A stretch of 32,000 nucleotides of DNA from an uncultured Clostridia bacterium (GTDB taxonomy: Bacteria; Bacillota; Clostridia; Oscillospirales; Oscillospiraceae): positions 63,303 to 95,302 of the forward strand of contig CANSAE010000007.1 in assembly GCA_947644595.1 (NCBI GenBank), given 5' to 3'. Position numbers and translations under genes: made by a program. Shown here one piece after another: positions 19,572 through 32,000 of this stretch. Below the pieces are notes generated by a model that saw only the letters and a list, made by a program, of their open reading frames with translations, made no database searches and had not been told where the DNA came from. Within the stretch, counting starts at the first letter, position 1; every line of letters begins with the position of its first letter.

Positions 19572-19691
19572 ATGAGCAAGAAAAAGAAAAACGGCAACGA
19601 AGATACTACCGTCAAGTACATAATCCTCGTTACCGCAATTCTGGAACTCGTTGATACCTTGATGGAAATCATCAAGAAACTCATCGAGTAG
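19572..19691 (+). CDS. Small hypothetical protein (39 aa), first ORF of the rightward transcript
   Basis: MSKKKKNGNEDTTVKYIILVTAILELVDTLMEIIKKLIE. A GGAGAG SD lies at 19561-19566. The ORF is below the track cutoff. Confidence 0.4.
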   Translation: MSKKKKNGNEDTTVKYIILVTAILELVDTLMEIIKKLIE

Positions 19692-19768
19692 CGGGAGGGG
19701 CGGAAGCCCCTTTCGTAGATAGGATACTCGTTTTTCTGCTCATTGTCAATAGATTATAGGAGGTGCGT

Positions 19769-19849
19769 ATGGAAGTTTTTGAATGGGTGCTGCGGATCGC
19801 AGAGTTGCTTTTTTATACCGCAGTGATTGTTTATGTGGTGAGGAGGTGA
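19769..19849 (+). CDS. Small hydrophobic peptide (26 aa), translationally coupled to the next gene
   Basis: MEVFEWVLRIAELLFYTAVIVYVVRR. An AGGAGGTG SD lies at 19758-19765, and the stop overlaps the next ATG (TGATG at 19847-19851). Confidence 0.35.
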   Translation: MEVFEWVLRIAELLFYTAVIVYVVRR

Positions 19850-20073
19850 TGTCATTGCAGGTGGTGTACCCGACGCTGGTTTCAGAAATGGCCAAAAATA
19901 AGGTGACAAAAACAACGATTGCAAAAGCTGTTGGGATTTCAACTCGTTCACTTTATTCAAAATTGAATGGGAAGACTGACTTTACATTGTCAGAAGCAGA
20001 TAAAATTCATTCTATTTTTTTCCCATATGTATCAAAGGACGAATTATTTGCGACAGATGCAGAGGGTGTATAA
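19849..20073 (+). CDS. Small Cro/XRE-like HTH protein (74 aa), paralog 1
   Basis: MSLQVVYPTLVSEMAKNKVTKTTIAKAVGISTRSLYSKLNGKTDFTLSEADKI..., with a GAGGAGG SD. It is about 40% identical by eye to the product of 20700-20924. Confidence 0.7.
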   Translation: MSLQVVYPTLVSEMAKNKVTKTTIAKAVGISTRSLYSKLNGKTDFTLSEADKIHSIFFPYVSKDELFATDAEGV

Positions 20074-20110
20074 AACCCGCCTGTTATACAGGCGGGGAAG
20101 GAGGTGAAGA

Positions 20111-20251
20111 ATGTCAAGAATTCGAGAATGGATTGATCGCCTATTTGAGCGAGAGCCTAATATATTACTCAAAGCGGCGGTCATCATCAACGCAGTAACC
20201 CTAATATGCCAAATATCACTGTTGCTACTAATGTTAGTACACCGATTGTAA
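20111..20251 (+). CDS. Small membrane peptide (46 aa)
   Basis: MSRIREWIDRLFEREPNILLKAAVIINAVTLICQISLLLLMLVHRL. A consensus AGGAGG SD lies at 20099-20104 with 6-nt spacing. The 3' 65 nt overlap the convergent gene 20187-20537. Confidence 0.45.
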   Translation: MSRIREWIDRLFEREPNILLKAAVIINAVTLICQISLLLLMLVHRL

Positions 20252-20537
20252 AAGATACCATTTGCCAAGTGCGATTCTCTTGAATTCTAAGTTCATATTC
20301 CTGTTCGTCTTTACGCATAAGGCTTTCCTGCTTATCTAAGAATTCTTGGAATAATAATCCTTCGTTTGTTATGACATATTCATCGCCAGTCTTTGTTAAG
20401 GCGTATGGAGCTATGAAATCAAGGGAAATAAGATGTTCAGCGTCTACGGGATGCAATTTTATAACTGCGCCACTTGATGTGCTTTTCAAGATGGACCTAT
20501 CTCGTTGAGACAGAAAAATGGTACTGTAATCCGTCAT
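20187..20537 (-). CDS. Hypothetical C-terminally membrane-anchored protein (116 aa), reverse-strand cassette
   Basis: AAAGGAG SD, its own near-consensus promoter (20559-20587), AT-rich composition, and C-terminal TM WQMVSFTIGVLTLVATVIFGILGLL. No family was recognised. Confidence 0.7.
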   Translation of the reverse strand: MTDYSTIFLSQRDRSILKSTSSGAVIKLHPVDAEHLISLDFIAPYALTKTGDEYVITNEGLLFQEFLDKQESLMRKDEQEYELRIQENRTWQMVSFTIGVLTLVATVIFGILGLLR

Positions 20538-20558
20538 TTTAATGCTCCTTTCTATTAT

Positions 20559-20587
20559 ATTTTACCATGTGAGCAAGGGAAGGTCAA
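20559..20587 (-). promoter_or_regulatory. Near-consensus promoter for the 116-aa gene, TTGACC-17 nt-TGgTAAAAT
   Basis: On the minus strand: TTGACC (20587-20582), a 17-nt spacer ending in TGg, and TAAAAT (20564-20559). Confidence 0.6.
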
Positions 20588-20699
20588 ATAAAGAATAGGG
20601 GTGAGATTTTGGAGAAACCAATCATGGCGGACGGTATCCGAAGGTTCGTTACGGAGCGAGGCTTAACGGATAATTTTCATGAGATACGGAGGTGGTACG

Positions 20700-20924
20700 G
20701 TGGTTTATTATCCAACTCTTGCTGGAGAAATCGCAAAACGGGGAATCAAGAAGAAAACCATTGCGGAGTGCCTGGGTGTGTGCGATAAGTCCCTGAATAA
20801 TAAGTTATCGGGACGGGTCCCGTTTACATGGCCAGAAGTAAAACTGATTTGCCGAACATTTTTCCCGGATATGAGTCCGGAAGAATTGTTTGCGGCCAGC
20901 ACGGAACAGGAAACTGGTGTTTGA
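20700..20924 (+). CDS. Small Cro/XRE-like HTH protein (74 aa if GTG start), paralog 2
   Basis: (M)VYYPTLAGEIAKRGIKKKTIAECLGVCDKSLNNKLSGRVPFTWPEVKLI... The GTG at 20700 lies 7 nt after GGAGG and gives the same length as paralog 1. An alternative ATG is at 20679. Confidence 0.65.
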   Translation: MVYYPTLAGEIAKRGIKKKTIAECLGVCDKSLNNKLSGRVPFTWPEVKLICRTFFPDMSPEELFAASTEQETGV

Positions 20925-20938
20925 AAGGGGTGTAAAGC

Positions 20939-21106
20939 ATGCAAAACAATCAGACGATTGAGATTAAGGCTCATATCGATACGAGCGAAATCAGTGAGGC
21001 AACAGCAAAACTTGAGCAGTTAATCGAATTGTTGGAAAAAGCCAATTCGCTGATTTGCGAATTGGCTAATAATGAAATCAAGCTTTCAGTTGAACTCAAG
21101 CCGTAA
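20939..21106 (+). CDS. Small hypothetical helical protein (55 aa)
   Basis: MQNNQTIEIKAHIDTSEISEATAKLEQLIELLEKANSLICELANNEIKLSVELKP. An AAAGGGG SD is present. The last 21 nt overlap the convergent gene 21086-21301. Confidence 0.35.
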   Translation: MQNNQTIEIKAHIDTSEISEATAKLEQLIELLEKANSLICELANNEIKLSVELKP

Positions 21107-21301
21107 ATTTATCTCTTCCCGGCAATGTGGGCAGATGCTGTGACCGGGCTTAACTTTAATTTGAGATGAGCAGTGTGGACAAGTAATTTCGTATCTCTCA
21201 TTAAGCAAAGCATTTTGTGTTTGCCCTATGATGGAAGATTCCAAGTCTCTGGTGAATCGCCGCATGTCTGACTTATTGCTGAGATTGTACTTTTTTGCCA
21301 T
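21086..21301 (-). CDS. Small zinc-ribbon protein (71 aa), reverse-strand cassette
   Basis: MAKKYNLSNKSDMRRFTRDLESSIIGQTQNALLNERYEITCPHCSSQIKVKPGHSICPHCREEINLRLEFN, with two CPHC pairs. An AAGGATGG SD and the consensus promoter at 21357-21385 are present. The longer track ORF (to 21559) would run through that promoter. Confidence 0.6.
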   Translation of the reverse strand: MAKKYNLSNKSDMRRFTRDLESSIIGQTQNALLNERYEITCPHCSSQIKVKPGHSICPHCREEINLRLEFN

Positions 21302-21356
21302 TAGATAACCATCCTTGTAAAAAGATAAGTGGGGTGCAAGACCACTTTCGGGTATT

Positions 21357-21385
21357 ATTATACGATAATCGGCAATGAAAATCAA
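21357..21385 (-). promoter_or_regulatory. Consensus SigA promoter, TTGATT-17 nt-TATAAT
   Basis: On the minus strand: TTGATT (21385-21380), a 17-nt spacer, TATAAT (21362-21357), about 55 nt upstream of the ATG at 21301. Confidence 0.6.
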
Positions 21386-21590
21386 TAGATAATGTGGCTT
21401 GGATATAAAAAACATACCATATCTTGTGTTTTTTGGAATCCGTCTCACATCGTCGGAGACTGTGTGGAATTGCGGGAATCCGTCTGCAAAAAGACGTGAA
21501 AAAATTTTTGTGGCGGTGGAACAAGTAGCATGAAAAACTGGCCTCTCTTGCCAGAACAAGAAAGGCCAGAATGGCAGATGTTCGCCGAAT

Positions 21591-21809
21591 TTACGGAGTG
21601 CAGACCGTCCATTGCTGGGCGGCAGGGCGATTGTTCACCTCGGAATCAAATGTATCGGAAATTGCGGTATGTGCCTGTCCTACGGCATTGACAAATTCGT
21701 TGATGGCATTTTCAACGATCTTTTCATTATCCTGTACGCAGTTTTCGCAAGCGGAAGAAGATACAGTGTTGTTTGCCGTGATATTATTTCTCATTCTTTC
21801 TAATCGCAT
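21591..21809 (-). CDS. Hypothetical protein (72 aa)
   Basis: ORF with protein-like composition (MRLERMRNNITANNTVSSSACENCVQDNEKIVENAINEFVNAV...). The SD is weak (GGAG about 11 nt upstream) and no clear promoter was found. Confidence 0.3.
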   Translation of the reverse strand: MRLERMRNNITANNTVSSSACENCVQDNEKIVENAINEFVNAVGQAHTAISDTFDSEVNNRPAAQQWTVCTP

Positions 21810-22051
21810 CCAAACTGTTGCTCCATTGGTAATGGGGATAGGTCATTTCTGCCTATCTCTCACAGTCGCCTGTGAGTTCAGACTGTGCCTTCATCCCGGA
21901 GGGATGCTCCGTGTCCAGTCGTTACACCTTCCCTGTATTCGGGCTTGGCTCGGCGTTTTCTGCTGAGGATAGGCTACCATATTTTGCCAGATTCGGCAAG
22001 GAAGAATCTACATGGCGCACAAAAGGGAAAATATGAAGGGGGGTGAACGGA

Positions 22052-22315
22052 ATGGAACAGAGCTTTGAGCTGCACCTGAAAATCGTGGAGGGCGGGGAGA
22101 ATACCCAAGTGGATACACGGCTGGAGGGTACGGGGGACGTGCGGCCGGATACGTTGATCAATGTACTATCGGAGCTGGTGCCGGTGGTGCTGCGGGAGAA
22201 TCGGGAAGCTATTGTGAAGCTGTGCTGGAATCTGGCGCTGGGGCTGCGGCCCCAAAAGAGCAAGCAGGAAGGCATTTCCATCGACCTGCCGGACATCAGG
22301 CCGGAGGAAGAATAA
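22052..22315 (+). CDS. Hypothetical phage protein (87 aa)
   Basis: ATG at 22052 with a GAAGGGGGG SD. It is followed by the hairpin GCCCTGTTCGG...CCGAACAGGGC (22321-22352). Confidence 0.55.
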   Translation: MEQSFELHLKIVEGGENTQVDTRLEGTGDVRPDTLINVLSELVPVVLRENREAIVKLCWNLALGLRPQKSKQEGISIDLPDIRPEEE

Positions 22316-22417
22316 GAAACGCCCTGTTCGGCGGGGAAACACCGAACAGGGCATAGGGGTGTAAAAGTTAACCACAATTACACCTCCATTATAGCAAAAA
22401 GAATGGAGGATTGCAAG

Positions 22418-22621
22418 ATGAAAAATAAAGTGATGAATATTCGTACGCTACGGCAGCGGGCGGGGTTGAGCGTACCGGCGTTGGCCGCGGAGACCGGGGT
22501 GTATCCGGGGATGGTCAATAACTGGGAGCATGAGGTCTATTTGCCGACGGCGCGGCAGCTCCCGGTGTTGGCTATGGCGTTGGGCTGCTCCATCGATGCG
22601 CTGTACTGCGGGGAGGGCTGA
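22418..22621 (+). CDS. XRE-family HTH protein (candidate Cro / early regulator)
   Basis: MKNKVMNIRTLRQRAGLSVPALAAETGVYPGMVNNWEHEVYLPTARQLPVLAMALGCSIDALY, with a GGAGGA SD 6 nt upstream. Confidence 0.75.
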   Translation: MKNKVMNIRTLRQRAGLSVPALAAETGVYPGMVNNWEHEVYLPTARQLPVLAMALGCSIDALYCGEG

Positions 22622-22624
22622 ACG

Positions 22625-22921
22625 GTGCCGAGAACAAAATTTACTGATCATGTGGCCCGGCAGCTGGAAGTGGACCGGCAAGCCAGGCGGGACCGGATCC
22701 GCGAGAAAATACAGGGCGCTTACCGGGAACAGGGGAAGCCGATTGAGGCGATCTCTAAAGCGCTGGGGCTGTCCCGGTCTGTGACCTACACCCGGTTAAG
22801 CCAGCCGGGGGACAAGTGGGAACTGCGGGAACTCATTGTGACCGCCGGCTGTTTACATATCCCGATGGACGAGCTGACGCCGTTTATGACGTCGCAGTAC
22901 TACGGAGGGGCAGGGCGATGA
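22625..22921 (+). CDS. Hypothetical phage protein, possible HTH
   Basis: GTG start 7 nt after GGGAGGG. It contains IEAISKALGLSRSVTYTRL. Its stop overlaps the next start. Confidence 0.55.
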   Translation: MPRTKFTDHVARQLEVDRQARRDRIREKIQGAYREQGKPIEAISKALGLSRSVTYTRLSQPGDKWELRELIVTAGCLHIPMDELTPFMTSQYYGGAGR

Positions 22922-23367
22922 GAAGGGACGAGCGCATCGAGGCGGTACAGGTGGAGTTCCCACGATTCAGCGGGCGCTTGTATACTGCCTGCCGCAGAAC
23001 GCCGGAAACGGGCGTGACCCTGTGCGCCCGGGCAAGAGAGCTGGCCGGCTTGAAGAAACCGGAGAAGCGGACAAAGGGGATCCACTGGTCCATTCGTGTG
23101 AACGAGGAACAGGACGCGCTGCTCAAGCGCCGGATGGACAAGCTGCACTACACCAGCAAGCAGGCTTACATAGAATCGCTGTTGGTAAAGGAAGCGGAAA
23201 AGCAACTCCGGGAGGAGCAAAAGGCGAAGGACACGGCATATGTGAGGGAGCAAGACCCGTTTTACCGGGAAAAGCTGTTGAAGGCCGCTGCGAAAAGGAA
23301 CGGAGTGTCGAAGCAGGAAATTGAGGAGTACATCAAAACCGGGAGGAAAGGTCATGGGCAAAAATGA
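22918..23367 (+). CDS. Hypothetical phage protein, possibly ribbon-helix-helix followed by a charged coiled-coil
   Basis: ATGA overlap with the upstream stop. The segment WSIRVNEEQDALLKRRMDKLHYTSKQAYIESLL looks like an RHH/MobC-type motif; this is a weak call. Confidence 0.55.
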   Translation: MRRDERIEAVQVEFPRFSGRLYTACRRTPETGVTLCARARELAGLKKPEKRTKGIHWSIRVNEEQDALLKRRMDKLHYTSKQAYIESLLVKEAEKQLREEQKAKDTAYVREQDPFYREKLLKAAAKRNGVSKQEIEEYIKTGRKGHGQK

Positions 23368-24055
23368 TAAGCCGGCCGCTGTCAGGAAAGCGGCGTATTA
23401 CGCGGCGGGGTGCTTTGCGTTGGGGGCTGTTGTGATGGTGCTGGCAGTGGCGCATGGGTTCCGGGTGAAGTCTGCGCTGCCAGACATTACACCGCCGGAA
23501 ATCACGGTTACATCATTGGAAATGCCAGGCTCCTGGGAAGAAGCCGGGAGTGTTGGCGGGGGTTCGGTCAGGCGGGCGGGCTTGCAATGTGAACGCGAAA
23601 GCGCGAAGAAGTCCCCTGGGGGACCCGCCCCGATGAAGCCGCTCCAGGCGGAAGCGCTGATTTTTTATACCACGCCGGAAATCATCGAACCGGTGATTTT
23701 GCCGGAAGAGGTCACGGAGCCGGAGGTCAACGTAATTGAGAACTGCGTGATTACATATTACTGCGCGGAGCGGTATGCCCATATCTGCGGGACCGGGGAC
23801 GGCATTACGGCCACCGGGGATGAGGCAGTACCAGGCGTGACCTGTGCGGTGGACCCATCTGTGATCCCTTATGGGAGCACGGTCATGATCGACTACGGAG
23901 ACGGAGTTTTACAGGAATACACCGCCCAGGATACAGGCGTGTGGGTGACGGAGGCTCATGTTGACGTGTGTGTAGCCAGTCATCAGGAAGCGTTGGAAAT
24001 GGGAAAGGTGACTGCGACAGTGTATTGGACGGCACCCGGGGAGGCGAGCATATGA
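23354..24055 (+). CDS. Membrane-anchored 3D-domain protein (MltA/RlpA-like double-psi beta-barrel)
   Basis: TM AAYYAAGCFALGAVVMVLAVA. The C-terminus ITATGDEAVPGVTCAVDPSVIPYGSTVMIDYGDGVLQEYTAQDTGVWVTEAHVDVCV matches the 3D-domain pattern. A GGGAGGAAAGG SD is present. Confidence 0.75.
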   Translation: MGKNDKPAAVRKAAYYAAGCFALGAVVMVLAVAHGFRVKSALPDITPPEITVTSLEMPGSWEEAGSVGGGSVRRAGLQCERESAKKSPGGPAPMKPLQAEALIFYTTPEIIEPVILPEEVTEPEVNVIENCVITYYCAERYAHICGTGDGITATGDEAVPGVTCAVDPSVIPYGSTVMIDYGDGVLQEYTAQDTGVWVTEAHVDVCVASHQEALEMGKVTATVYWTAPGEASI

Positions 24056-24321
24056 CAGAAGCGAAAATTGGACGGTGCGGATTTAATGAGAATGTGTTAT
24101 GCACAAAAACCAAGTGTCACGAATGCGGTTGGCATCCGAAGGTCGCGGAAATGCGGAAGCAGGAGATCCAATGCTCAGATCACGATACAGCGGTCCGGCG
24201 GAAGTTCAAACGGTTGTTGTGTGAGAATTTCAATCATCAAGAATTGGAATATCTGGATAATGAGATCGAGGGGATTTCATTGATGGATCTGGACCTTTAT
24301 CAGAAATGGAGGAACCTTTGA
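24052..24321 (+). CDS. Cys-rich hypothetical phage protein (89 aa)
   Basis: ATGA overlap with the upstream stop. Sequence MTEAKIGRCGFNENVLCTKTKCHECGWHP... Confidence 0.55.
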   Translation: MTEAKIGRCGFNENVLCTKTKCHECGWHPKVAEMRKQEIQCSDHDTAVRRKFKRLLCENFNHQELEYLDNEIEGISLMDLDLYQKWRNL

Positions 24322-25247
24322 TTCGAGAAATTAAGTACACGGGACATGAAGAATGGCTGGAATTGAGAAAGCATCTGGGCATCGGAGGAAGTGAAGCCGG
24401 GGCCGTGATGGGGCTGGATGCGTACAAATCTCCGTATGCATTATGGGCAGAGAAAACTGGGCGGATTTCAGGCTTTGATGGGAATATCACGACTAAGGTC
24501 GGAAGCTGTCTGGAAGAACTGGTAGCACAGATGTTCACGGAACAGACTGGGAAAAAGGTGCGGCGGAAGAATGCGATTCTGGTAAATGACGACTTCCCAT
24601 TTGCTTTTGCGGATGTAGACAGGCTGGTGGTAGGAGAAAATTCCTTGCTTGAGATCAAGACCACCAACAGCTTTCCGGTTATGCGGAACGTTCGGAACGG
24701 TGAGTTCCCGGACCGTTGGTGGTGTCAGATATGTCATTATATGGCTGTGACCGGTTGTGAGAAGGCATATCTGGCTGCGCTGGTGAATTGCCGGGAGTTT
24801 TATGTATTTGAACTGGCCCAGGATGAGGAAGAAATCGCAGCGCTGATGGACAGCGAGCGGCTGTTCTGGGAACTGGTGCAGTCAGACACACCGCCGGGAA
24901 TGGACGGCAGCCTGGCGACCGCAGAAGCGATCGGCGCAGTTTATTCCGGCGGCGGAGATGCGGTTGAACTGTTTGGGCGGGAAGCGCTGCTGCGGGAATA
25001 CGACGAACTGAAAGCGCGGCAACAGGAATTGGACGGACAGGTCAGGGCCATTGAAAATATGCTGAAGCAGGATATGGGAGATGCGGAACGGGCTTTGTGC
25101 GGGGCTTGGACTGTGTCTTGGAGGCCGCAGGAACGCCGCACGTTTGATACGAAAGAATTTACAAGACAATACCCGGAAATCGACATAGAGCCGTTTTATA
25201 AAATAAGCGGCAGCCGTCCGTTCCGGGTGACGAGAAAGGATGTATAA
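24306..25247 (+). CDS. YqaJ-type viral recombinase exonuclease (lambda Exo-like PD-(D/E)XK)
   Basis: HEEWLELRKHLGIGGSEAGAVMGLDAYKSPYALWAEKTG and DRLVVGENSLLEIKT motifs. It sits immediately upstream of recT. Confidence 0.85.
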   Translation: MEEPLIREIKYTGHEEWLELRKHLGIGGSEAGAVMGLDAYKSPYALWAEKTGRISGFDGNITTKVGSCLEELVAQMFTEQTGKKVRRKNAILVNDDFPFAFADVDRLVVGENSLLEIKTTNSFPVMRNVRNGEFPDRWWCQICHYMAVTGCEKAYLAALVNCREFYVFELAQDEEEIAALMDSERLFWELVQSDTPPGMDGSLATAEAIGAVYSGGGDAVELFGREALLREYDELKARQQELDGQVRAIENMLKQDMGDAERALCGAWTVSWRPQERRTFDTKEFTRQYPEIDIEPFYKISGSRPFRVTRKDV

Positions 25248-25249
25248 AT

Positions 25250-26077
25250 ATGGCAGGAGCAATTGTAAAAGCGGCGGAGCAACGCATGGAGAGCACCGGA
25301 AAGAAATCTGTGCAGCAGTATATCAAGCAGATGCAGGGGGAGATCGCAAAGGCGCTGCCGTCAGTGATGACGCCGGAGCGGTTTACGCGGATCACACTGT
25401 CCGCTCTGTCCTCCAACCCCAAATTGCAGGAATGCAGTCCGCAAAGCTTTTTGGGCGCAATGATGACGGCGGCACAATTGGGCGTGGAGCCAAATACGCC
25501 ACTGGGACAGGCTTACCTGATCCCATTTCGGAATCACGGACGGATGGAATGCCAGTTCCAGCTTGGGTATAAAGGTATGATTGATTTGGCATACCGTTCC
25601 GGTGAAGTCAGCGTGATCCAGGCGCAGGTTGTTTATGAGAACGACGGCTTTACCTATTCGTTTGGCTTGGAGCCGGAGTTGAAGCATACGCCTGCCAAAA
25701 CAGACCGTGGGGATCCGGTATATGTTTATGCTCTATTCAAAACAAAGGACGGAGGATTTGGCTATGATGTCATGTCTATGGTCGATGTACGGCACCATGC
25801 GCAGAAGTACAGCAAAAGCTATGGAAATGGGCCGTGGCAGACGAACTTTGAAGAGATGGCCAAAAAGACCGTGCTGAAGAAGGTGCTGAAATATGCGCCG
25901 TTGAAGTCTGATTTTGTTCGGCAGCTTGCGGCGGATGAAACTGTTAAGACAGAGCTCAGCGAAGATATGTATGATGTTCCCGGCAACTATATTGAAGTGG
26001 ATTTTGAGGTAGACCAAGACACGGGTGAAGTCATGGGGGAAGCCTACACGGCGGAAAGCGAGAGGACAGATGCTTAA
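25250..26077 (+). CDS. recT: RecT-family single-strand annealing recombinase
   Basis: FTRITLSALSSNPKLQECSPQSFLGAMMTAAQLGVEPNTPLGQAYLIPF and QLGYKGMIDLAYRSG are typical RecT segments. Confidence 0.9.
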   Translation: MAGAIVKAAEQRMESTGKKSVQQYIKQMQGEIAKALPSVMTPERFTRITLSALSSNPKLQECSPQSFLGAMMTAAQLGVEPNTPLGQAYLIPFRNHGRMECQFQLGYKGMIDLAYRSGEVSVIQAQVVYENDGFTYSFGLEPELKHTPAKTDRGDPVYVYALFKTKDGGFGYDVMSMVDVRHHAQKYSKSYGNGPWQTNFEEMAKKTVLKKVLKYAPLKSDFVRQLAADETVKTELSEDMYDVPGNYIEVDFEVDQDTGEVMGEAYTAESERTDA

Positions 26078-26480
26078 TCATATTACCATTATGGGACGGC
26101 TCACACGCGACCCTGAACTGCGGTATACCCAGTCCCAGACCCCAGTGACGTCTTTCACTCTGGCGGTAGACCGGGATTTCGTAGGCCGCGACAGCGGCGA
26201 GCGTCAGACCGACTTTATCGACGTGGTTGCATGGCGTCAAACAGGCGAGTTTGTCTCCAAGTATTTCACGAAAGGCAGCATGGCCGTAGTTTCCGGCCGC
26301 CTGCAGATCCGTGACTGGACGGACCGGGACGGCAACAAGCGCAGAAGTGCCGAGGTCTTGGCAGAAGATGTTTACTTTGGCGAGAGCAAGCCACGATCGG
26401 ACAGTGTCGGGATGAAAAAAGACAACGGAGTCAGTACTTTTTCTGCATATGATGATATAGATGAAGATCTTCCGTTTTGA
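26070..26480 (+). CDS. ssb: Single-stranded DNA-binding protein
   Basis: MLNHITIMGRLTRDPELRYTQSQTPVTSFTLAV (OB fold) and an acidic tail DDIDEDLPF. The start at 26070 has a GAGAGGA SD and overlaps the recT end. Confidence 0.9.
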   Translation: MLNHITIMGRLTRDPELRYTQSQTPVTSFTLAVDRDFVGRDSGERQTDFIDVVAWRQTGEFVSKYFTKGSMAVVSGRLQIRDWTDRDGNKRRSAEVLAEDVYFGESKPRSDSVGMKKDNGVSTFSAYDDIDEDLPF

Positions 26481-26490
26481 GGTGATATAA

Positions 26491-27147
26491 ATGGTACCGT
26501 GGATACAAGTATTTTCTAATATGGTGAATCACCCAAAAACATATAAGCTTGCAGACCTGCTGGGAATCAAATCCCGGCAGGTCAAACCCAATGTGATCGC
26601 CGGAGGACTGATGGTAAGCTTATGGACGTGGGCAGCGCAGAATGCTACGGACGGCGATTTGTCCGGCGTAACAGCACAATGTATTGCTGATGCTGCCGGT
26701 TGGGTAGGGAGCGCAGCAGCATACCGGAATTCATTGGTAACATCCGGATATGCAGATGAAGTGGAGGGTGGCCTGTATCTACATGATTGGCTTGAACATG
26801 CCGCGCTTTTGATGGATGCGGAAACAAACAAAAAAGAGAAAAACAGAGAACGGGCAAAGCGTTACCGTGACAGAAAAAAATCGCCGCAGGAGCGTGACGA
26901 AAGCGTGACACGTCACGGTGATGGGCGTGACGAAATGACGGCCCGTCACGCACCTACCCAACCTAACCTAACCATACCTAACCAAGAAGATATATCTATT
27001 CTATCCTGTTCTATACAGGAAAGAAAAGAAAAGCTAAAAGAAACGAAAGAAGCCGGCAGGGATGCTGAAAGCTGGGAGGGCAAAAAGGCGCAGGCTTACG
27101 GTGTGCTGGACAAGCTGTATCCCGGCAGGGGGTATGGCGATGTTTAA
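26491..27147 (+). CDS. Hypothetical phage protein, possibly a replication/replisome-organizer-like protein with a basic low-complexity C-terminus
   Basis: Position after ssb. The N-terminal domain has LYLHDWLEHAALL, reminiscent of phage replication organizers (memory only). The coding sequence contains an iteron/AT-rich block. Confidence 0.4.
   Translation: MVPWIQVFSNMVNHPKTYKLADLLGIKSRQVKPNVIAGGLMVSLWTWAAQNATDGDLSGVTAQCIADAAGWVGSAAAYRNSLVTSGYADEVEGGLYLHDWLEHAALLMDAETNKKEKNRERAKRYRDRKKSPQERDESVTRHGDGRDEMTARHAPTQPNLTIPNQEDISILSCSIQERKEKLKETKEAGRDAESWEGKKAQAYGVLDKLYPGRGYGDV
26866..27055. repeat. Iteron-like repeat cluster plus AT-rich tract (candidate phage replication origin inside the gene)
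   Basis: CGTGAC at 26866, 26893, 26904 and 26926, and GTCACG at 26912 and 26945. The 11-mer GCGTGACGAAA occurs at 26892 and 26925. About seven tandem ACCTA-like pentamers lie at 26952-26985, followed by a purine/AT-rich tract at 26986-27050. Confidence 0.5.
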
Positions 27148-27526
27148 GCTGGTGATCCCCGGACGGCTGCCGGGGCTGAATGAATACATTGCGGCGGAAC
27201 GGACAAGCCGTTACAAGGCCGCCGCTATGAAGCGGGAGTGTGAGGCCCTTGTGCTGCCGGCGGCAAGGAGGTCCTTGCGGAAATGGCGGCAGACAGACAA
27301 GCCTGTTATCATGCGCTACACATGGTACGAGAAGGACCGGCGGCGGGATATGGACAATATTTCGTCCTACGGCAGGAAGGTCATTCAGGATGCACTGGTG
27401 AAGGGCGGGTATCTCCGGGGGGACGGATGGGAATGTATCGCGGGCTTTGCCGACGGGTTTGCCGTGGATCGGAAGAACCCACGGGTTGAAGTTGAGATTG
27501 TCGAGGTGGAGACATGCGGCAGTTAG
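27140..27526 (+). CDS. rusA: RusA-family Holliday junction resolvase
   Basis: LPGLNEYIAAERTSRYKAAAMKRE and RRRDMDNISSYGRKVIQDALVKGGYLRGD (DxDN...K...DAL) match RusA. The start at 27140 is 7 nt after GGGGG. Confidence 0.8.
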   Translation: MFKLVIPGRLPGLNEYIAAERTSRYKAAAMKRECEALVLPAARRSLRKWRQTDKPVIMRYTWYEKDRRRDMDNISSYGRKVIQDALVKGGYLRGDGWECIAGFADGFAVDRKNPRVEVEIVEVETCGS

Positions 27527-28812
27527 GAGATATCACCCGGATATCGGGGTACACCGCGCCGGTGGTGGATGCGGTGATCGGAGGCAGCCCGTGTCAAGGG
27601 CTGTCACAAGCTGGTAAGCGTAGAGGGCTGGCCGATGAGCGGAGCGGACTGTTCATGGAGCAGATTCGCGTTATCAAGGAAATGAGGGAAGCAGATGCAA
27701 GAACTGGACGGACAGGTCGGTTTATTAGACCTCGGTTTATGGTCTTTGAAAACGTCCCCGGAGCCTTCAGCAGCGGAGATCCGAAAGGCGAGGACTTCCG
27801 CATCGTCCTCGAAGAAACGATCAGGATCGCGGAGCCGGACGCTCCCGGCATTCCACTACCTACAAAAGGAAAGTGGCCTCTGGCTGACTGCTGGTATGGA
27901 GACGGATGGTCTATCGCCTACCGAGTTCTCGACGCACAGTTTTGGGGAGTGCCCCAGCGTCGCCGTCGAATCACGCTTGTCGCAGATTTTGGAGGACACG
28001 CCGCACCCGAAATACTATTTGTCCGAAAAGGCGCGTGCGGGGATGCTGCGGCGGGCGGAACGGCGGGGGAAGAAGCTGCCGGAGGAACTGAAATCGGCGT
28101 TGAAACAGCAGGCGGGTATCGCTGCGCAGGACTGAAACACAAAGCCGGCGCAAAGGCTGGAAGTATTGGATTTGCGCCGGAGATTGCGCCGACATTATCC
28201 GCGGAACAGCAATCGGCGGTGTATGACGCAAGAGGGAACGGCGATGGGGAAACCGTCTGCACGCTGGCCGGCGATCACGCAAACAGAGTGACGGACTACA
28301 CGGCTATTGTGATGGCGACCGGGCAGGCCGGGGCGGAAATCATGCGGGATGTGTCGCCCACACTTAATTGCGACCATGAACAGCCTATCGTTGCCCATGC
28401 TCTCCGTGGGAGCGGGAAAGACCCGCACCGGGAGGATGCGGTTACATACCCGGTGACACATGGTCGTGTCAGACGGCTCACGCCGCTGGAGTGCGAGCGG
28501 CTGCAAGGCTACCCGGACGGGTGGACGGACATTGGGCCGTGGGTGGACAGCAAGGGGAAACTCCACAAAGAGAGCAGCGACAGCGCGCGGTACAAGGCGC
28601 TGGGGAACTCCATTGCGCTGCCGCCCTGGGCGTGGGTGCTGAAACGCCTTTGCGCCTGCTATGAGCGGCCGGCTACGATGGCGAGCCTGTTTGACGGTAT
28701 CGGCGGGTTCCCGCTGTTGTGGGAACGGCTGAACGGACCGGGGAGCTGCCTGTGGGCGAGCGAGATCGAGGAGTTTCCGATGGCAGTGACGAAAGTGAGA
28801 TTTGGGACGTAA
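27514..28812 (+). CDS. DNA (cytosine-5)-methyltransferase with circularly permuted motif order
   Basis: Motif IV GGSPCQGLS (Cys27), VI FENVPGA, VIII WGVPQRRRRI, IX RRLTPLECERLQGYPDGW, X YKALGNSIALP. Motif I SLFDGIGGF and motif II WASEIEEF follow at the C-terminus. A GAGGTGGAG SD is present, and the start overlaps the rusA end. Confidence 0.85.
   Translation: MRQLGDITRISGYTAPVVDAVIGGSPCQGLSQAGKRRGLADERSGLFMEQIRVIKEMREADARTGRTGRFIRPRFMVFENVPGAFSSGDPKGEDFRIVLEETIRIAEPDAPGIPLPTKGKWPLADCWYGDGWSIAYRVLDAQFWGVPQRRRRITLVADFGGHAAPEILFVRKGACGDAAAGGTAGEEAAGGTEIGVETAGGYRCAGLKHKAGAKAGSIGFAPEIAPTLSAEQQSAVYDARGNGDGETVCTLAGDHANRVTDYTAIVMATGQAGAEIMRDVSPTLNCDHEQPIVAHALRGSGKDPHREDAVTYPVTHGRVRRLTPLECERLQGYPDGWTDIGPWVDSKGKLHKESSDSARYKALGNSIALPPWAWVLKRLCACYERPATMASLFDGIGGFPLLWERLNGPGSCLWASEIEEFPMAVTKVRFGT
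27695..28135 (+). CDS. Candidate overlapping ORF (146 codons) in the +1 frame inside the methyltransferase gene; unproven
   Basis: The ATG at 27695 is preceded by GAGGGA with 5-nt spacing. The product ends ..FGECPSVAVESRLSQILEDTPHPKYYLSEKARAGMLRRAERRGKKLPEELKSALKQQAGIAAQD. Main-frame third-position GC falls across exactly this interval (hand count; see findings). Confidence 0.3.
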   Translation: MQELDGQVGLLDLGLWSLKTSPEPSAAEIRKARTSASSSKKRSGSRSRTLPAFHYLQKESGLWLTAGMETDGLSPTEFSTHSFGECPSVAVESRLSQILEDTPHPKYYLSEKARAGMLRRAERRGKKLPEELKSALKQQAGIAAQD

Positions 28813-28815
28813 GAT

Positions 28816-29601
28816 ATGGAACACATACTTAGCCTGTCCTATGGCAAGGACAGTTTGGCGTGCCTGGGGGCGATTGAGCTGATGGGCTGGCCGCTGGATC
28901 GAATCGTCCATGCGGAGGTATGGGCGACGGATACGATTCCAGCGGACCTGCCGCCGATGGTGGAGTTTAAGGCCCGGGCGGATGAGATTATCAAGGCCCG
29001 GTGGGGCATCACTGTGGAGCATGTAAGGGGACCATATACGTTTGAGCAGGGGTTCTATCTACTACGGGGACGGACAGGCATAAAGTCAAAATTTGCTGGA
29101 CGTATTTATGGATGGCCAATGCAGCGGGGACAATGGTGCTTGCAGCAACTAAAATTGCCGGCGATTGCAAAGTGCGCCAGAAAGAATGATAACCAGTACA
29201 TAGGCATTGCCAAAGATGAACCGAAACGTTTCAAAGCGCTGTCGGAAACCAAGTGTAGCCCGCTGGTAGAAGCCGGATGGACGGAAGCCATGTGCCGCGA
29301 GTGGTGCGAAAAGAATGACCTGTTATCTCCGATCTACACCACTTCTGCCAGGGGGGGATGTTGGTTTTGCCACAATCAGAGCGTTGATCAGCTCCGGCTT
29401 TTGCGCCGGAACTACCAGGAGTATTGGGCGCTTATGCTCAAATGGGACAAGGATAGCCCGGTGACGTTCCACCCGGACGGTCATACCGTACACGACTTTG
29501 ACAGACGCTTTGCGCTGGAGGACGAGGGTCTGATCTACCCGGACGAGTATTTTCGCTGGGAGATGCTGGAGAGTGAAATGCTCAATTACAGACTGTTTTA
29601 G
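28816..29601 (+). CDS. PAPS-reductase / PP-loop ATP-pyrophosphatase family protein (phage type)
   Basis: N-terminal PP-loop LSLSYGKDSLA (SGGKDS-like) and a C-terminal Cys cluster GGCWFCHNQ. It starts 4 nt after the methylase stop. Confidence 0.7.
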   Translation: MEHILSLSYGKDSLACLGAIELMGWPLDRIVHAEVWATDTIPADLPPMVEFKARADEIIKARWGITVEHVRGPYTFEQGFYLLRGRTGIKSKFAGRIYGWPMQRGQWCLQQLKLPAIAKCARKNDNQYIGIAKDEPKRFKALSETKCSPLVEAGWTEAMCREWCEKNDLLSPIYTTSARGGCWFCHNQSVDQLRLLRRNYQEYWALMLKWDKDSPVTFHPDGHTVHDFDRRFALEDEGLIYPDEYFRWEMLESEMLNYRLF

Positions 29602-29611
29602 GAGATTAACG

Positions 29612-29962
29612 ATGAAGCGATTGACAATCAGAACGCCGAAGGGCGCGGCGTTGAAAATGAATGATACATACCAAAGTGAGGCGGAAGCAAAGGACGATCT
29701 GATGCGTAAATACCGAATCGCGATTGAACGCCTTGCCGACTATGAGGACATGGGGCTGACCCCGGAGGAAGTGGCAGAACTGGTAAAGCGTACAACACGG
29801 GTAAAGCCGTATGCGGAAAGTGACGCTGACCGACTGTGCGGGCATTGTTATTCCTACATTGATTGGGATGCGCTTAATGGCCGCGTTGAAGATGCACCAA
29901 AATATTGCAAATCGTGTGGAAAACCCATCGACTGGAGCGATAAGAAAGGCGGTGCGGAATGA
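29612..29962 (+). CDS. Hypothetical phage protein with a C-terminal zinc ribbon
   Basis: AGGAG SD. Sequence MKRLTIRTPKGAALKM... with CGHC...CKSCG. Confidence 0.6.
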   Translation: MKRLTIRTPKGAALKMNDTYQSEAEAKDDLMRKYRIAIERLADYEDMGLTPEEVAELVKRTTRVKPYAESDADRLCGHCYSYIDWDALNGRVEDAPKYCKSCGKPIDWSDKKGGAE

Positions 29963-30162
29963 GTAGCGTGATGAATCCGAATCCAAAGCCCATGACCAAT
30001 GGCGACCGCATCCGGGCGATGATCGATGAGGAACTGGCGGAAATCATCATGTGTCCAAAAGAGCATATTACATACCTGGGTGTCTTTGCTTGTAGGAAAA
30101 GTGAAACCGGTTGCACCGCATGCTGTCTGGAATGGCTCAAACAGCCTGCGGAGGTGGAGTGA
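29959..30162 (+). CDS. Small hypothetical phage protein (67 aa)
   Basis: ATGA overlap with the upstream gene. Sequence TNGDRIRAMIDEELAEIIMCP...CTACCLEWLKQP. Confidence 0.55.
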   Translation: MSSVMNPNPKPMTNGDRIRAMIDEELAEIIMCPKEHITYLGVFACRKSETGCTACCLEWLKQPAEVE

Positions 30163-30425
30163 TGGCGGGCGAAACCAGATGTGAGTGGTGCAAATACTAT
30201 GCAAAATTTGAAACTCCATACCATTACGAGCACAGAGAATATCCTGATGGCATCACCGTATACGGCTGCTGCGGGAAGGATGAGGGACGGTCATTCTCGT
30301 TATACCCTGTGTATCTCCCTGACGGCGGAGTGTGCAAGGATTATAAAAGGAAAAGCGGCATCAAGGCGGAAACTATGCCGCAAGAGGGGCAGATCAGCAT
30401 GGAGGAGGCGATGAAAGATGCGTGA
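30162..30425 (+). CDS. Small Cys-rich hypothetical phage protein (87 aa)
   Basis: The ATG at 30162 overlaps the upstream TGA, with a GGAGGTGGAG SD. Sequence MAGETRCEWCKYYAKFE... Confidence 0.55.
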   Translation: MAGETRCEWCKYYAKFETPYHYEHREYPDGITVYGCCGKDEGRSFSLYPVYLPDGGVCKDYKRKSGIKAETMPQEGQISMEEAMKDA

Positions 30426-30858
30426 AATTTTGTTCCGTGGAAAACGGAAGGATAACGGAGAGTGGGTGTATGGAGACCTTATTCATAACGGTGTAGACGA
30501 AAATAATGGTCTCGTTGAATACAAGGATGGAGACGAATTTATCTGCATGGTTGATATACAGGACAAATTGTGTATTATACGGAAAGTTAAAGCTGATACA
30601 GTCGGTCAGTACGTAAATTTTATTGACAAGAATGGTGTAAAGGTATTCGAGGGCGATATTGTAAAAATTATGTGTGGCGGAATGGAATACATTGCGCAGA
30701 TTGTATGGGATAATTTCGAGCACGCGTTTATAGCAAGAAATAAATCTGGTGTTTATGGATCATCTTTTGAATACTTAAGAAAAAGCCATCTTGTTAAAGT
30801 CATCGGCAACGTCTACGACAACCCGCATTTGATGGAGGTGCAAGATGGAGAAAATTAA
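30418..30858 (+). CDS. YopX-family phage protein
   Basis: MREILFRGKRKDNGEWVYGDL... and VIGNVYDNPHLME are typical of YopX. Confidence 0.8.
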   Translation: MREILFRGKRKDNGEWVYGDLIHNGVDENNGLVEYKDGDEFICMVDIQDKLCIIRKVKADTVGQYVNFIDKNGVKVFEGDIVKIMCGGMEYIAQIVWDNFEHAFIARNKSGVYGSSFEYLRKSHLVKVIGNVYDNPHLMEVQDGEN

Positions 30859-31021
30859 ACCTTGCCCGTTTTGTGGTGGAAAAGGACAGATTTTCAATAG
30901 CGTTTTAAATATTAAGCATGTTGAATGCTTAATATGTGGAGCGTCCAGAAAAATACCAGCGACACAAGAGAAGTATGCAATTATGCATTGGAATCGTAGG
31001 GAAACTGATAATAAAAGGTGA
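30845..31021 (+). CDS. Lar-family (restriction alleviation-like) zinc-ribbon protein (58 aa)
   Basis: MEKIKPCPFCGGKGQIF...VECLICGASRKIPATQEKYAIMHWNRRE. The pattern PCPFCGG...C..CG...A...WNRR matches the Lar family. The ORF is below the track cutoff. Confidence 0.6.
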   Translation: MEKIKPCPFCGGKGQIFNSVLNIKHVECLICGASRKIPATQEKYAIMHWNRRETDNKR

Positions 31022-31050
31022 TTTAAACCTTTATATTGAGAGGTGATAGC

Positions 31051-31248
31051 GTGGAAGAGTTCCCAGAACGTCTAAGGCGGTTGAGGGAGAGAAGAGGAAT
31101 GAGCAGAAAGAAGCTTTCAGAATGTTTTGGATTGTCTAAAAATATGATAGCAAGGTATGAACGAGGAGAAAGAATTCCCGATTTGTATACTGCCCGTGAA
31201 CTTGCGGAATTCTTCGATATTACGCTTGATGATCTTGCAAAAAAATAA
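31051..31248 (+). CDS. XRE-family HTH protein
   Basis: (M)EEFPERLRRLRERRGMSRKKLSECFGLSKNMIARYERGERIPDLYTARELAEFFDITLDDL. A GTG start at 31051 follows GAGAGGTGA; the alternative TTG at 31036 is the track start. Confidence 0.7.
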   Translation: MEEFPERLRRLRERRGMSRKKLSECFGLSKNMIARYERGERIPDLYTARELAEFFDITLDDLAKK

Positions 31249-31254
31249 TTTATC

Positions 31255-31280
31255 AGTGCCCCCAAATGGGGGCACTTTAC
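31255..31280 (+). terminator. Intrinsic terminator
   Basis: AGTGCCCCC-aaat-GGGGGCACT followed by TTTACTATT. Confidence 0.6.
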
Positions 31281-31391
31281 TATTATGGTGCTTTATAATA
31301 TACATGAGGTCATTGTTTCTTCTCTCTAAACCTCCATATACTCTTTTCTCCATGACGGCTGGTGTGGGAGACCGCATCAGCTGTCAAATAT

Positions 31392-31465
31392 GGTCCGTTA
31401 GCTCGAAGGCCGAGCAACCGGCTCATAACCGGCGGGGCAAGGTTCGATTCCTTGACGGATCACCA
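31392..31465 (+). tRNA. Phage-encoded tRNA with CAT anticodon (Met, or Ile2 if lysidine-modified)
   Basis: Folded by hand. Acceptor GGTCCGT/ACGGATC (one G-U), D-arm GCTC-gaaggcc-GAGC, anticodon arm ACCGG-CTCATAA-CCGGC (A27-C43 mismatch), 4-nt variable region, T-arm CAAGG-TTCGATT-CCTTG, and an encoded CCA. Length 74 nt. Confidence 0.7.
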
Positions 31466-31482
31466 GAAATGAGGTTACTAGA

Positions 31483-31638
31483 ATGAGATGGCTTTTTAAT
31501 TATTTGCGGCAATGTTTTTGCAATCATGAATTTGAATTACTTGCAAGAGTTCGTGTACATGATGATTGGGGCGGGGATAGTGACCGTTGGGTACATCGAT
31601 GCAAAAAGTGTGGATATATAAAGAAAGTCGAATTTTAA
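31483..31638 (+). CDS. Small zinc-binding phage protein (51 aa)
   Basis: MRWLFNYLRQCFCNHEFELLARVRVHDDWGGDSDRWVHRCKKCGYIKKVEF, with a GAGG SD 8 nt upstream. The C..H...C..CG pattern is common in small prophage proteins. Confidence 0.5.
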   Translation: MRWLFNYLRQCFCNHEFELLARVRVHDDWGGDSDRWVHRCKKCGYIKKVEF

Positions 31639-31740
31639 TATGATTCAAACGTTTTGATGGATTAGCATTGGTTGCATCGGCATAGTAAACGCTGATGAGG
31701 TGGGCATGGGGCAATATATTATGTTTGAGTGGTGGTGTTA

Positions 31741-32000
31741 GTGGCCGTTGATTGGATGAGGATAAAAACAGAATATATCAACGGTTCAATAAGCCTTAGA
31801 AAGTTGGCAAAGAAAAGTGGAGTATCGTATAGTCAACTCGCCAAAATTGCTGCAGCTGAAAAATGGAACGATCAAAAAGAATCACAGCGAATCAATATAG
31901 AATCAAAAACGAATCAAAAAGCAGCTGAAAAAATTTCTGATATCGAATCGGAAGTGATTGCGATAAAATCTCGCTTAAAGTTGAGTATATACCAACAGAT
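31741..32000 (+). CDS. Terminase small subunit-like HTH protein; N-terminal part only, runs off the right edge
   Basis: VAVDWMRIKTEYINGSISLRKLAKKSGVSYSQLAKIAAAEKWNDQKE... resembles the HTH N-terminus of small terminase / YjcR-like proteins. The start is uncertain (GTG 31741 or ATG 31756). Confidence 0.55.
   Translation, partial: MAVDWMRIKTEYINGSISLRKLAKKSGVSYSQLAKIAAAEKWNDQKESQRINIESKTNQKAAEKISDIESEVIAIKSRLKLSIYQQ

Follow-up and report, generated by a model that had tools for sequence, protein, structure and literature searches.

Can a cytosine-C5 DNA methyltransferase (MTase) gene whose conserved motifs run in a permuted order encode a genuine member of this enzyme family, and what is the meaning of a second open reading frame (ORF) lying inside it? 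These questions are raised by a prophage locus in a 32,000-nucleotide stretch of DNA from an uncultured Clostridia bacterium (contig CANSAE010000007.1, positions 63,303 to 95,302), the whole of which is referred to here as the window. The reading favoured, to which we assign a probability of about 0.8, is that the locus carries a genuine, conserved, circularly permuted C5 enzyme together with a real nested coding frame, termed f2, in the +1 frame of the MTase gene. The chain would start at motif III, run through motifs IV-VIII, the target-recognition domain (TRD) and motifs IX-X, and end with motifs I and II, which bind S-adenosylmethionine (AdoMet). The parts of the MTase gene are the following.

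27514..28812, + strand: circularly permuted gene for a C5 DNA methyltransferase of 432 aa, from ATG to TAA, motif order III-IV-VI-VIII-TRD-IX-X-I-II
27523..27543, + strand: motif III LGDITRI, the new N-terminus, aligning to M.HhaI GDITQV from residue 59
27574..27606, + strand: motif IV VIGGSPCQGLS with catalytic Cys27 (TGT 27592-27594), in frame, unlike the relatives with a 4-nt insertion described below
27745..27765, + strand: motif VI FENVPGA
27943..27972, + strand: motif VIII WGVPQRRRRI
28024..28131, + strand: low-complexity G/A/E-rich linker, MTase residues 171-206, amino acid conservation poor (0.2-0.4)
28132..28470, + strand: variable target-recognition region with modules ..APTLSAEQQ.. 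and ..SPTLNCDHEQP..
28471..28524, + strand: motif IX RRLTPLECERLQGYPDGW
28591..28623, + strand: motif X YKALGNSIALP
28660..28683, + strand: junction of the old C-terminus and the old N-terminus, YERPAT-M389-A, with the ATG of Met389 at 28678-28680
28684..28776, + strand: motifs I SLFDGIGGF (28684-28710) and II WASEIEEF (28753-28776), residues 391-421, the AdoMet-binding strands, C-terminal

The ORF and each of these motifs were found where the original prediction, made from the letters of the sequence, had placed them, and its motif order also stands, except that it began with motif IV; motif III (LGDITRI) precedes motif IV, and the break thus lies between motifs II and III. The chain starts with MRQLGDIT and ends with ..WASEIEEFPMAVTKVRFGT, while YERPATMA, with six linker residues and the putative relic of a start Met, connects motif X to motif I. 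The last 13 nt of the upstream RusA-like gene are shared with the start of this gene, whose ATG has a GGAG 5 nt before it. Since the frame 5' of the ATG is shut by a TGA at 27493-27495, six codons before it, no motif I is hidden upstream, as had been predicted. All motifs are invariant or almost so across 43 full-length relatives, in which GGSPCQ (Cys27), FENVPGA and QRRRR show no change at all, and the Cys-Gln pair of motif IV is read in frame in the window (TGT CAA, 27592-27597). The whole protein scores 116.3 bits against PF00145 (cut-off 22), in four separate stretches, and 121.6 bits against TIGR00675 (dcm; cut-off 100.65).

The non-colinearity of these matches carries the first part of the argument. 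In a phmmer alignment with M.HhaI, query residues 390-431 pair with HhaI 15-54 and query residues 5-58 with HhaI 59-112. Searched piece by piece, the Pfam profile PF00145 matches the N-terminal 159 aa at profile positions 47-127, residues 303-389 at 270-313 and the last 44 aa at 4-33, so that the end of the protein falls on the start of the profile. Moreover, a composite query, in which the C-terminal 52 aa of the MTase were joined to its N-terminal 110 aa, gives a colinear alignment with the enzyme of Clostridium phage Saumur, whose motifs stand in canonical order (46% identity over 157 aa, E = 3e-39), and the junction is gap-free, ..KVRFGT joined to MRQLGDIT.. lying on ..ARHFPD-MKQLGDIT... 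The composite is likewise colinear with P1 Dmt (34% over 135 aa, E = 1.7e-20) and with the enzymes of Vibrio phage 24 and mycobacteriophage Omega (gp127). These rejoined-end alignments are far above chance, and no residue is missing or duplicated at the junction when it is compared with canonical enzymes. Judged by sequence homology, the protein is a member of the C5 family with a permuted topology, departing from the canonical I-to-X order; the original prediction of a permuted C5 enzyme, and of non-colinear profile matches in particular, is borne out by these alignments. In the AlphaFold model of the full MTase (43-sequence alignment; mean confidence, pLDDT, 52), only residues 1-170 are confident. 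This III-VIII part superposes on M.HhaI, M.HaeIII and M.MpeI (probability 1.0, ~155 columns, 3.0 Å), and the proposed superposition on M.HhaI therefore holds for III-VIII, while motifs I-II could not be superposed because the model is confident for III-VIII only.

If the permuted order were an artefact of assembly or a chimera, the fault should lie at ~27500 or ~28670. This explanation is effectively refuted: 21 contigs, drawn from independent ENA and Logan assemblies, encode the identical 432-aa protein next to the same genes, and both junctions are common to hundreds of diverged loci. The breakpoint, which the original prediction had proposed to look for in homologues, is general among them, since motif I lies near the C-terminus in 120 of the 120 best hits in a database of 5.8 billion proteins and the same permutation is present in 112 of 144 classified loci; the homologues are thus not all canonical. 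In IMG/VR, 464 stretches encode relatives of the MTase, and the best 80 of them are nearly all colinear with the whole query. The gene is found in 70 species-representative genomes, mostly of Oscillospiraceae, Lachnospiraceae and other Clostridia, and its cultured carriers include Gemmiger gallinarum, Faecalibacterium tardum, Bittarella massiliensis, Flintibacter muris and Ruminiclostridium papyrosolvens. The permuted arrangement is kept in relatives down to ~45% identity, with coding-type evolution in all parts. Even the I-II tail is as protein-like as the rest, with an amino acid identity of 0.70 and a synonymous-difference fraction (codon differences among pairs sharing the same amino acid) of 0.55. 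Gene callers mis-annotate loci of this kind as fragments or hypothetical proteins, and such mis-annotation distorts methyltransferase counts in viromes.

How does this topology compare with those already known? Natural permuted C5 enzymes comprise M.BssHII, M.Alw26I, M2.Eco31I, M.Esp3I, M2.BsaI and 22 more from REBASE (PMC5944983). Ten topologies were engineered by Slaska-Kiss et al. (PLoS One 2018), among which Class B, with the N-terminus between motifs II and III, was the most active by far, cp62M.MpeI being similar in activity to the wild type (PMC5944983). No natural Type B enzyme was found in REBASE by these authors, who speculated that the topology had been selected against (PMC5944983). 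The window enzyme has precisely the Type B topology as defined by the engineered cp62M.MpeI and cp58M.SssI, with its N-terminus between motifs II and III and the motif X helix joined directly to motif I. However, the Type B constructs are laboratory forms of CG-specific mycoplasma and spiroplasma enzymes, whereas the window enzyme is one of a large family that occurs naturally in prophages, has a TRD unrelated to theirs and contains a nested gene.

None of the 27 REBASE enzymes, and neither of the plant DRM proteins compared, shares this topology, and the original prediction, which had named M.BssHII as the reported case of permutation, was too narrow on that point; it was right that the breakpoint differs. 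Type H enzymes (M.BssHII, M.Alw26I, M2.Eco31I, M.Esp3I and M2.BsaI) are bacterial C5 enzymes with motif X before motif I, as in the window, but their break lies in the variable region (IX-X, then I-VIII) and leaves both structural domains contiguous. In contrast, the window enzyme starts at motif III and has IX-X after VIII and the TRD, and its break splits the AdoMet-binding subdomain between beta2 and beta3. In plant DRM the motif order is VI-X, then I-V. The window protein is colinear with the permuted C5 enzymes DRM2 and NtDRM (PDB 4onj, 7l4h) across the X-to-I junction (query 322-413), the only junction that both have in common; in the window motifs III-V stand before motif VI, whereas DRM is eukaryotic and has another breakpoint and context. 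No prior description of a natural Type B enzyme, or of the nested gene, was found in the literature searched, which did not include REBASE, and within that scope the natural occurrence of Type B is new relative to the 2018 study and the later literature. A natural Type B family, widespread in gut prophages and seemingly of single origin, changes the conclusion of the 2018 work, the only systematic study known of permutation in C5 methyltransferases, that this topology is absent from nature, and it offers natural sequences for the engineering of split and permuted methyltransferases. In C5 enzymes the two ends of the chain are near each other, and for this reason the fold could close as in the engineered Type B permutants, and the window enzyme would fold and methylate as these do.

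The permutation seems to have arisen once, from canonical-order phage enzymes similar to Dmt. When the IV-VIII cores were placed in a simple neighbour-joining distance tree, rooted at its midpoint, the 87 non-identical permuted genes, from Clostridia prophages, grouped in a single clade that excluded the 10 canonical ones; this pattern fits a single origin. Met389 is conserved in >=90% of relatives, i.e., at least that share, and aligns just before the N-terminal LTLGSLFDG of canonical relatives, which fits its being the relic of an ancestral start codon, as was suggested in the original prediction. The new start, Met1, matches an internal Met of canonical enzymes (..HFPD-M-KQLGDIT), and this internal Met of the ancestor may have become the new start codon. 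The simplest route would be a tandem duplication followed by loss of both outer parts; the two Met residues are consistent with this model, which had also been put forward in the original prediction, while the intermediate that it calls for was not encountered, as discussed below.

What, then, is the second ORF, which the original prediction had overlooked? Its features are as follows.

27695..28135, + strand: nested gene f2, 146 aa, ATG..TGA, wholly inside the MTase gene, +1 frame
27676..27690, + strand: Shine-Dalgarno-like AAGGA / GAGGGA before the f2 ATG, within the conserved MTase codons IKEMRE
27713..27733, + strand: f2 residues 7-13, QVGLLDL, at the position of QxSLF in most relatives; a degenerate variant in the window
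27938..28132, + strand: f2 C-terminal domain (SFGECPSVAVESRLSQILEDTPHPKYYLSEKARAGMLRRAERRGKKLPEELKSAL..), predicted helical with high confidence, conserved to P1, Vibrio, Streptococcus and mycobacteriophage enzymes

The f2 frame covers MTase residues 61-207, from before motif VI to ~50 codons beyond motif VIII, and in ~150 related loci (tblastn) it is open and 40-72% identical where the MTase segment is 45-82% identical. The strongest evidence for coding comes from stop codons counted at fixed coordinates in 30-nt bins across 124 non-identical loci. Up to nt 180 the +1-frame stops per bin are 173, 79, 80, 29, 7 and 192; between nt 180 and nt 570 they fall to 3, 0, 0 and 1, followed by nine zeros; past nt 570 they rise again to 19, 64, 37 and 42 onward. 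Thus, the f2 span contains 4 stops in the +1 frame where hundreds are expected, while the +2 frame has stops in every bin (8-94). Resampling synonymous codons with each MTase protein held fixed gives an expectation of ~2.9 stops per locus in the f2 span; this control serves for the null expectation only, its "zero observed stops" being partly circular because the spans were defined as ORFs, and it is the fixed-coordinate count that carries the evidence. Furthermore, in a codon alignment of 90 non-identical genes, the synonymous-difference fraction is 0.57-0.60 before the overlap and 0.53-0.57 after it, and drops to 0.33 overall within it (0.42, 0.38 and 0.18 in its successive thirds), many columns being at 0.00. 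In 116 non-identical ORFs the f2 ATG is conserved directly after stop codons, with a Shine-Dalgarno (SD)-like AAGGAG/GAGG 6-13 nt upstream; the stop is conserved as well and the median length is 145 aa. At 15 other loci no ATG was found in the range searched.

Could this conservation be a by-product of nucleotide-level constraint, such as RNA structure or the codon bias of a highly conserved enzyme core? Some of the sequence conservation of f2 is indeed accounted for by the position of its first two thirds, which lie over the best-conserved motifs of the MTase. As an account of the whole, such constraint is disfavoured and highly improbable. Stops are depleted in one frame and one interval, and remain so in genomes of 40% GC; f2 start, SD and stop are conserved; the C-domain of f2 is 50-60% identical between phages whose MTases are ~30-37% identical. 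Above all, synonymous suppression is strongest (0.18) at MTase residues 161-206, where the MTase protein is least conserved. Opposite the G/A/E-rich linker of the MTase, the f2 frame reads ..LSQILED.PHPKY.LSAKAC.GILRRAERRGK.LP..L..AL.., and the DNA of the linker (residues 171-206) is constrained chiefly by this nested frame. The "long variable region" of the original prediction begins with these residues, whose DNA is held mainly by f2. At the other end of the overlap, IKEMRE (MTase residues 54-59) is the most conserved short MTase peptide outside the catalytic motifs and coincides with the f2 ribosome-binding site, and its conservation may partly be a nucleotide-level requirement. A resemblance of an f2 segment, LS.ILE..KY.LS, to the post-motif-VIII segment of canonical type II enzymes was considered; it found no sequence support and is not claimed.

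The nested frame is widespread and, by the sequence comparisons made here, older than the permutation. Gene callers elsewhere have called 1171 f2 homologs of ~140-160 aa, and an exhaustive profile search of 1.84 billion cluster representatives gives 4536 f2 matches at E <= 1e-3; none of the homologs bears a name beyond "hypothetical protein", and the window's own copy has never been called as a gene. The C-terminal domain is found in 129 phage records (tblastn). A +1 ORF of 133-163 codons, which opens shortly ahead of motif VI and closes ~50 codons beyond motif VIII, is present in the canonical-order genes of coliphage P1 (dmt), Vibrio phage 24 and mycobacteriophage Omega (gp127), as well as in Streptococcus phage Javan261 and Terrisporobacter phage TPDSL_ph1, whose genes have 40-42% GC and contain +1 stops all along except in the f2 interval. 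In P1, this is an unannotated 163-codon ORF (NC_005856 66710-67201, inside dmt 66412-68676; L161:1459-1950; ..MWSLQMQ...NTSEWHNDADACLLSQVLEQTSIPQRYFLSSKACAGILRRGEKRRKSLPPLLQMAL..). The cores of these canonical-order enzymes (P1 Dmt C5 domain, Vibrio phage 24/CP-T1, Omega gp127/gp128, Saumur, Javan261) are homologous to that of the window with 30-46% identity, and they have the same nested +1 ORF over motifs VI-VIII with the same C-terminal domain. Unlike the window enzyme, they carry motifs I-II at the N-terminus; P1 moreover possesses a Dam domain, and in Omega the split comes after motif VIII. The association of f2 with this MTase clade spans phages of Firmicutes, Actinobacteria and Proteobacteria, always in the +1 frame over motif VIII. 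It represents a well-supported, long, same-strand overlapping gene in phages of three bacterial phyla, unannotated even in P1.

The closest precedent for the nested gene, by analogy of architecture, is M.EcoHK31I, whose alpha gene also encodes, in a different frame, a beta polypeptide that contributes motif IX and is needed for activity (PMC2836561). Like the window, M.EcoHK31I is a C5 MTase gene with a complete second ORF in an alternative frame; however, its beta product carries motif IX, whereas in the window motif IX is in the main frame and f2 has no methyltransferase motif. The 146-aa product of f2 would be translated from its own start and act as a partner or subunit of the MTase. The main reason to regard it as part of the enzyme is that, in many relatives, its frame is fused to TRD-IX-X(-I-II). 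In an AlphaFold model from a 61-sequence alignment, f2 has a disordered stretch of ~90 residues and, after it, a confidently predicted helical mini-domain (residues 93-146, pLDDT 85-91). The product would thus comprise an N-terminal motif of the QxSLF type, ~70 residues of disordered chain and the small helical domain.

The disordered N-terminus contains a short motif that may explain what f2 does. A Qxx[LMI]F peptide lies within the first 25 residues in 75 of 116 non-identical ORFs (QVSLF in 24, QLSLF in 19) and within the first 40 residues in 180 of 267 called f2 proteins (median position 8), compared with 4 of 1911 background windows; many of the remaining ORFs carry QxxLxL-like variants, and Omega f2 has QLDLF. 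The bacterial sliding-clamp-binding consensus is QL[S/D]LF or QxxLF, and Firmicutes PolC has QLSLF (PMC12309361). The QxSLF of f2 matches this consensus and is placed 5-10 residues past the ATG in the region predicted to be disordered. Since the MTase residues encoded by these codons are poorly conserved and synonymous change there is low, the motif is under selection in the nested frame. By this peptide the MTase may be held at the sliding clamp, DnaN, and methylation of newly replicated phage DNA would then take place at the fork; the place of the MTase gene in a replication module fits such tethering. This role, proposed from the peptide and its position, is a tentative one, whose chances we put somewhat short of even.

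Eukaryotic DNMT1 is tethered to PCNA through a PCNA-interacting peptide (PIP) box. If QxSLF binds DnaN, the logic would be the same, with a clamp peptide recruiting a cytosine methyltransferase to forks, although proteins and clamps are unrelated and the phage motif is located on a separate nested product or at the N-terminus of a TRD subunit. This would provide a bacterial-virus counterpart of DNMT1-PCNA, in which cytosine methylation is coupled to the replication fork, and would explain how orphan phage methyltransferases keep pace with replication and evade restriction. The broadest form of the proposal, namely that the clade from P1 Dmt to the Clostridia enzymes is a two-product locus whose f2 adaptor docks QxSLF on DnaN, with the window as the first natural Type B permutant, is a conjecture in which we place limited trust.

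On the other hand, f2 could be real and have nothing to do with methylation, for example as a host-takeover factor that inhibits DnaN or as a regulator of the operon, nested to save space. Short clamp-binding motifs do occur in many unrelated proteins, and f2 has no similarity to methyltransferase parts, with no match to PF00145 even at E <= 10. Nevertheless, its tie to one MTase clade holds across phages of three phyla with a constant frame over motif VIII, and its repeated in-frame fusion to the TRD-IX-X module is sensible for a part of the enzyme; an unrelated role is for these reasons unlikely, if worth keeping in sight. The idea that f2 is an in-frame part of the MTases of some relatives was also tried and rejected: a BLAST search against 120 homologs was empty, and f2 is found in frame only with the TRD module, in relatives with two ORFs.

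These relatives reveal two states of the locus. Most are like the window, with one long MTase ORF and a nested ORF. In others, the MTase frame stops 37-110 codons past motif VIII and the f2 frame continues into TRD-IX-X-I-II (425-552 aa), an f2-TRD-IX-X-I architecture that is present in at least 30 of the 147 best cluster representatives; the counterpart in canonical-order relatives is f2-TRD-IX-X. The nested C-domain is +1 relative to motif VIII wherever both can be located. From the one-ORF and two-ORF states it follows that the TRD-to-II module can hang on either frame. The two-ORF state (III-VIII plus TRD-IX-X-I-II) is mirrored by the engineered complementing split pair Mpe[62-279]+Mpe[280-61]. 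Its dismissal as a set of rare frameshift errors was considered and rejected, given many distinct f2-TRD-IX-X-I clusters and junctions without homopolymers.

Could access to the +1 ORF instead depend on frameshifting, ribosomal or transcriptional, or on slippage of the DNA at G tracts, giving alternative isoforms such as III-IV-f2 or III-VIII plus f2-TRD-IX-X-I-II? Such isoforms would be akin to the hard-coded proteins in which III-IV run into f2 (P0243, P0372, P0184) or III-VI into the f2 C-domain (FP_Toutatis), and to the f2-TRD-IX-X-I-II fusions, and several switches between states occur at G8-G11 tracts. However, the conserved ATG after stops with an SD 6-13 nt upstream in the 116 ORFs, and a QxSLF at the distance from the ATG expected of a true N-terminus, point to independent initiation; moreover, homopolymers in the window gene do not exceed 5, and stable two-ORF junctions lack them. 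Frameshifted isoforms are hence a rather unlikely source of f2, and translation from its own start is preferred.

Several observations on individual relatives touch on these states. The switch tracts of G8-G11 often encode the GGGK of the first TRD module, ~175-200 nt past motif VIII (L073, L109, L119, L125, L142), and the switch in FP_Toutatis (L159) is at a GGG run between motifs VI and VIII; other one-/two-ORF switches, including those of stable two-ORF relatives, have no homopolymer at the junction. The G8-G11 tracts may be slippage-prone contingency tracts or sequencing errors. In P0243, P0372 and P0184 (205-217 aa) and in P0358 (333 aa), III-IV run in frame into f2, and in FP_Toutatis gp14 (L159:1489-2106) motifs III-VI continue in frame into f2; proteins of this type may fix a possible trans-frame isoform in the DNA, or they may be products of frameshift mutation. 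In published phages, the locus is annotated as two adjacent "DNA methyltransferase" coding sequences (CDSs) or as one truncated CDS: gp14/gp15 of the isolated phage FP_Toutatis (L159) are a frameshifted MTase copy annotated as two CDSs, Omega (L163, NC_004688 gp127/gp128) is split after motif VIII with the nested ORF present, and Saumur (L160, canonical order) is frameshifted at a GGGG run.

A different disruption is seen in 18 relatives, which have exactly 4 extra bases between the codons for the catalytic Cys and the Gln of motif IV (TAGC in ten, CAGC in four, TAGT in two and TTGC in two; L001 (3079-3095), L002-L004, L009, L011-L013, L018-L020, L022, L090-L093, L104 and L153). The first 27 codons of these genes (GTG start, VEHLGDITKLNGYELPAVDVVIGGSPC) are out of frame with the rest, both parts being open, and they evolve in a coding-like manner, with 176/124/679 differences by codon position. 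This insertion could reflect recoding, a Cys-less product or recent decay. Programmed +1 frameshifting was considered for it and rejected, as there is no convincing slippery site and the inserted bases vary.

Some points weigh against the reading of an active permuted enzyme with a translated partner. Methylation by the MTase and translation of f2 are steps that we infer from sequence. The TRD and the IX-X-I-II part have low confidence in the AlphaFold model (pLDDT 22-54, and 32-54 for IX-X-I-II), and closure of the fold is therefore not demonstrated structurally. A duplication intermediate with motif I at both ends was not found among 387 proteins and 165 loci. In the window, the f2 N-terminus reads QVGLLDL, at variance with QxxLF, and no obvious clamp motif is present in the f2 of P1 and Vibrio. 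No match to f2 was found in Pfam, PHROG, NCBIfam, PDB sequences or PDB folds, the best Foldseek hit with the f2 model having E = 6.4, and because family and structure matches are lacking its function is read from the architecture of the loci. Finally, ~1/4 of the related loci have frame disruptions, and in P0389 (640 aa, six Logan contigs), which is >=90% (at least 90%) identical to the window MTase, motifs I-II are deleted.

In P0389, a 171-nt in-frame deletion (corresponding to window 28684-28854), apparently between short TGGCG/GCCTG repeats, also takes the first 14 codons of the next gene and fuses III..X to a protein similar to 3'-phosphoadenosine 5'-phosphosulfate (PAPS) reductase.

From these disruptions and the P0389 deletion it follows that the MTase family is prone to inactivation. 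They also give substance to the view of the window MTase itself as an inactive remnant, the pseudogene of a decaying prophage, in which the motifs came into their present order by accident, through deletion between two tandem or adjacent MTase genes. About a quarter of its relatives are frame-disrupted, P0389 lost I-II by a microhomology deletion that fused it to its neighbour, and the FP_Toutatis copy is split by a frameshift into two CDSs. The window copy, by contrast, is a single open frame, in which every catalytic and cofactor motif is intact and no homopolymer exceeds 5. Neither the retention of the order down to ~45% identity, with coding-type evolution throughout, nor a junction at which residues are neither lost nor repeated relative to canonical enzymes is what a remnant predicts, and the engineered enzyme of the same topology is as active as the wild type. 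A remnant is consequently improbable; individual copies in the family are often disabled, but the window copy is not, and the locus is probably an intact C5 MTase gene encoding an active enzyme, as far as sequence can tell.

Regarding its surroundings, the window joins host chromosome (1-16300) to prophage (16340-32000). The host part, from position 1 to ~16000, encodes phosphoenolpyruvate carboxykinase (570-2135), AsnA, asparaginase, an S-layer homology (SLH) protein and a histidine kinase, and the first prophage genes are those for an integrase (16340-17485, - strand), a protein of the DUF3800 family and a CI-like S24 repressor (18635-19441, - strand). The MTase gene is located in the plus-strand early operon, devoted to replication and recombination, of this integrated prophage of Oscillospiraceae type, after the genes for RecE-like, RecT, SSB, replication-initiator and RusA proteins and before a PAPS-reductase-like gene. 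An antisense ORF of 275 codons (28195-29022, - strand) overlaps the MTase gene in its 3' half and also the beginning of the gene that follows; the MTase gene has 60% GC, and antisense ORFs like this one are common in the window. The PAPS-reductase-like gene (phrog_424, 28816-29601) starts 4 nt after the MTase stop, and at locus L001 a PAPS_reduct-family gene is the immediate upstream neighbour of the MTase; the two cases point to a recurrent association of PAPS-reductase-like genes with these methyltransferases.

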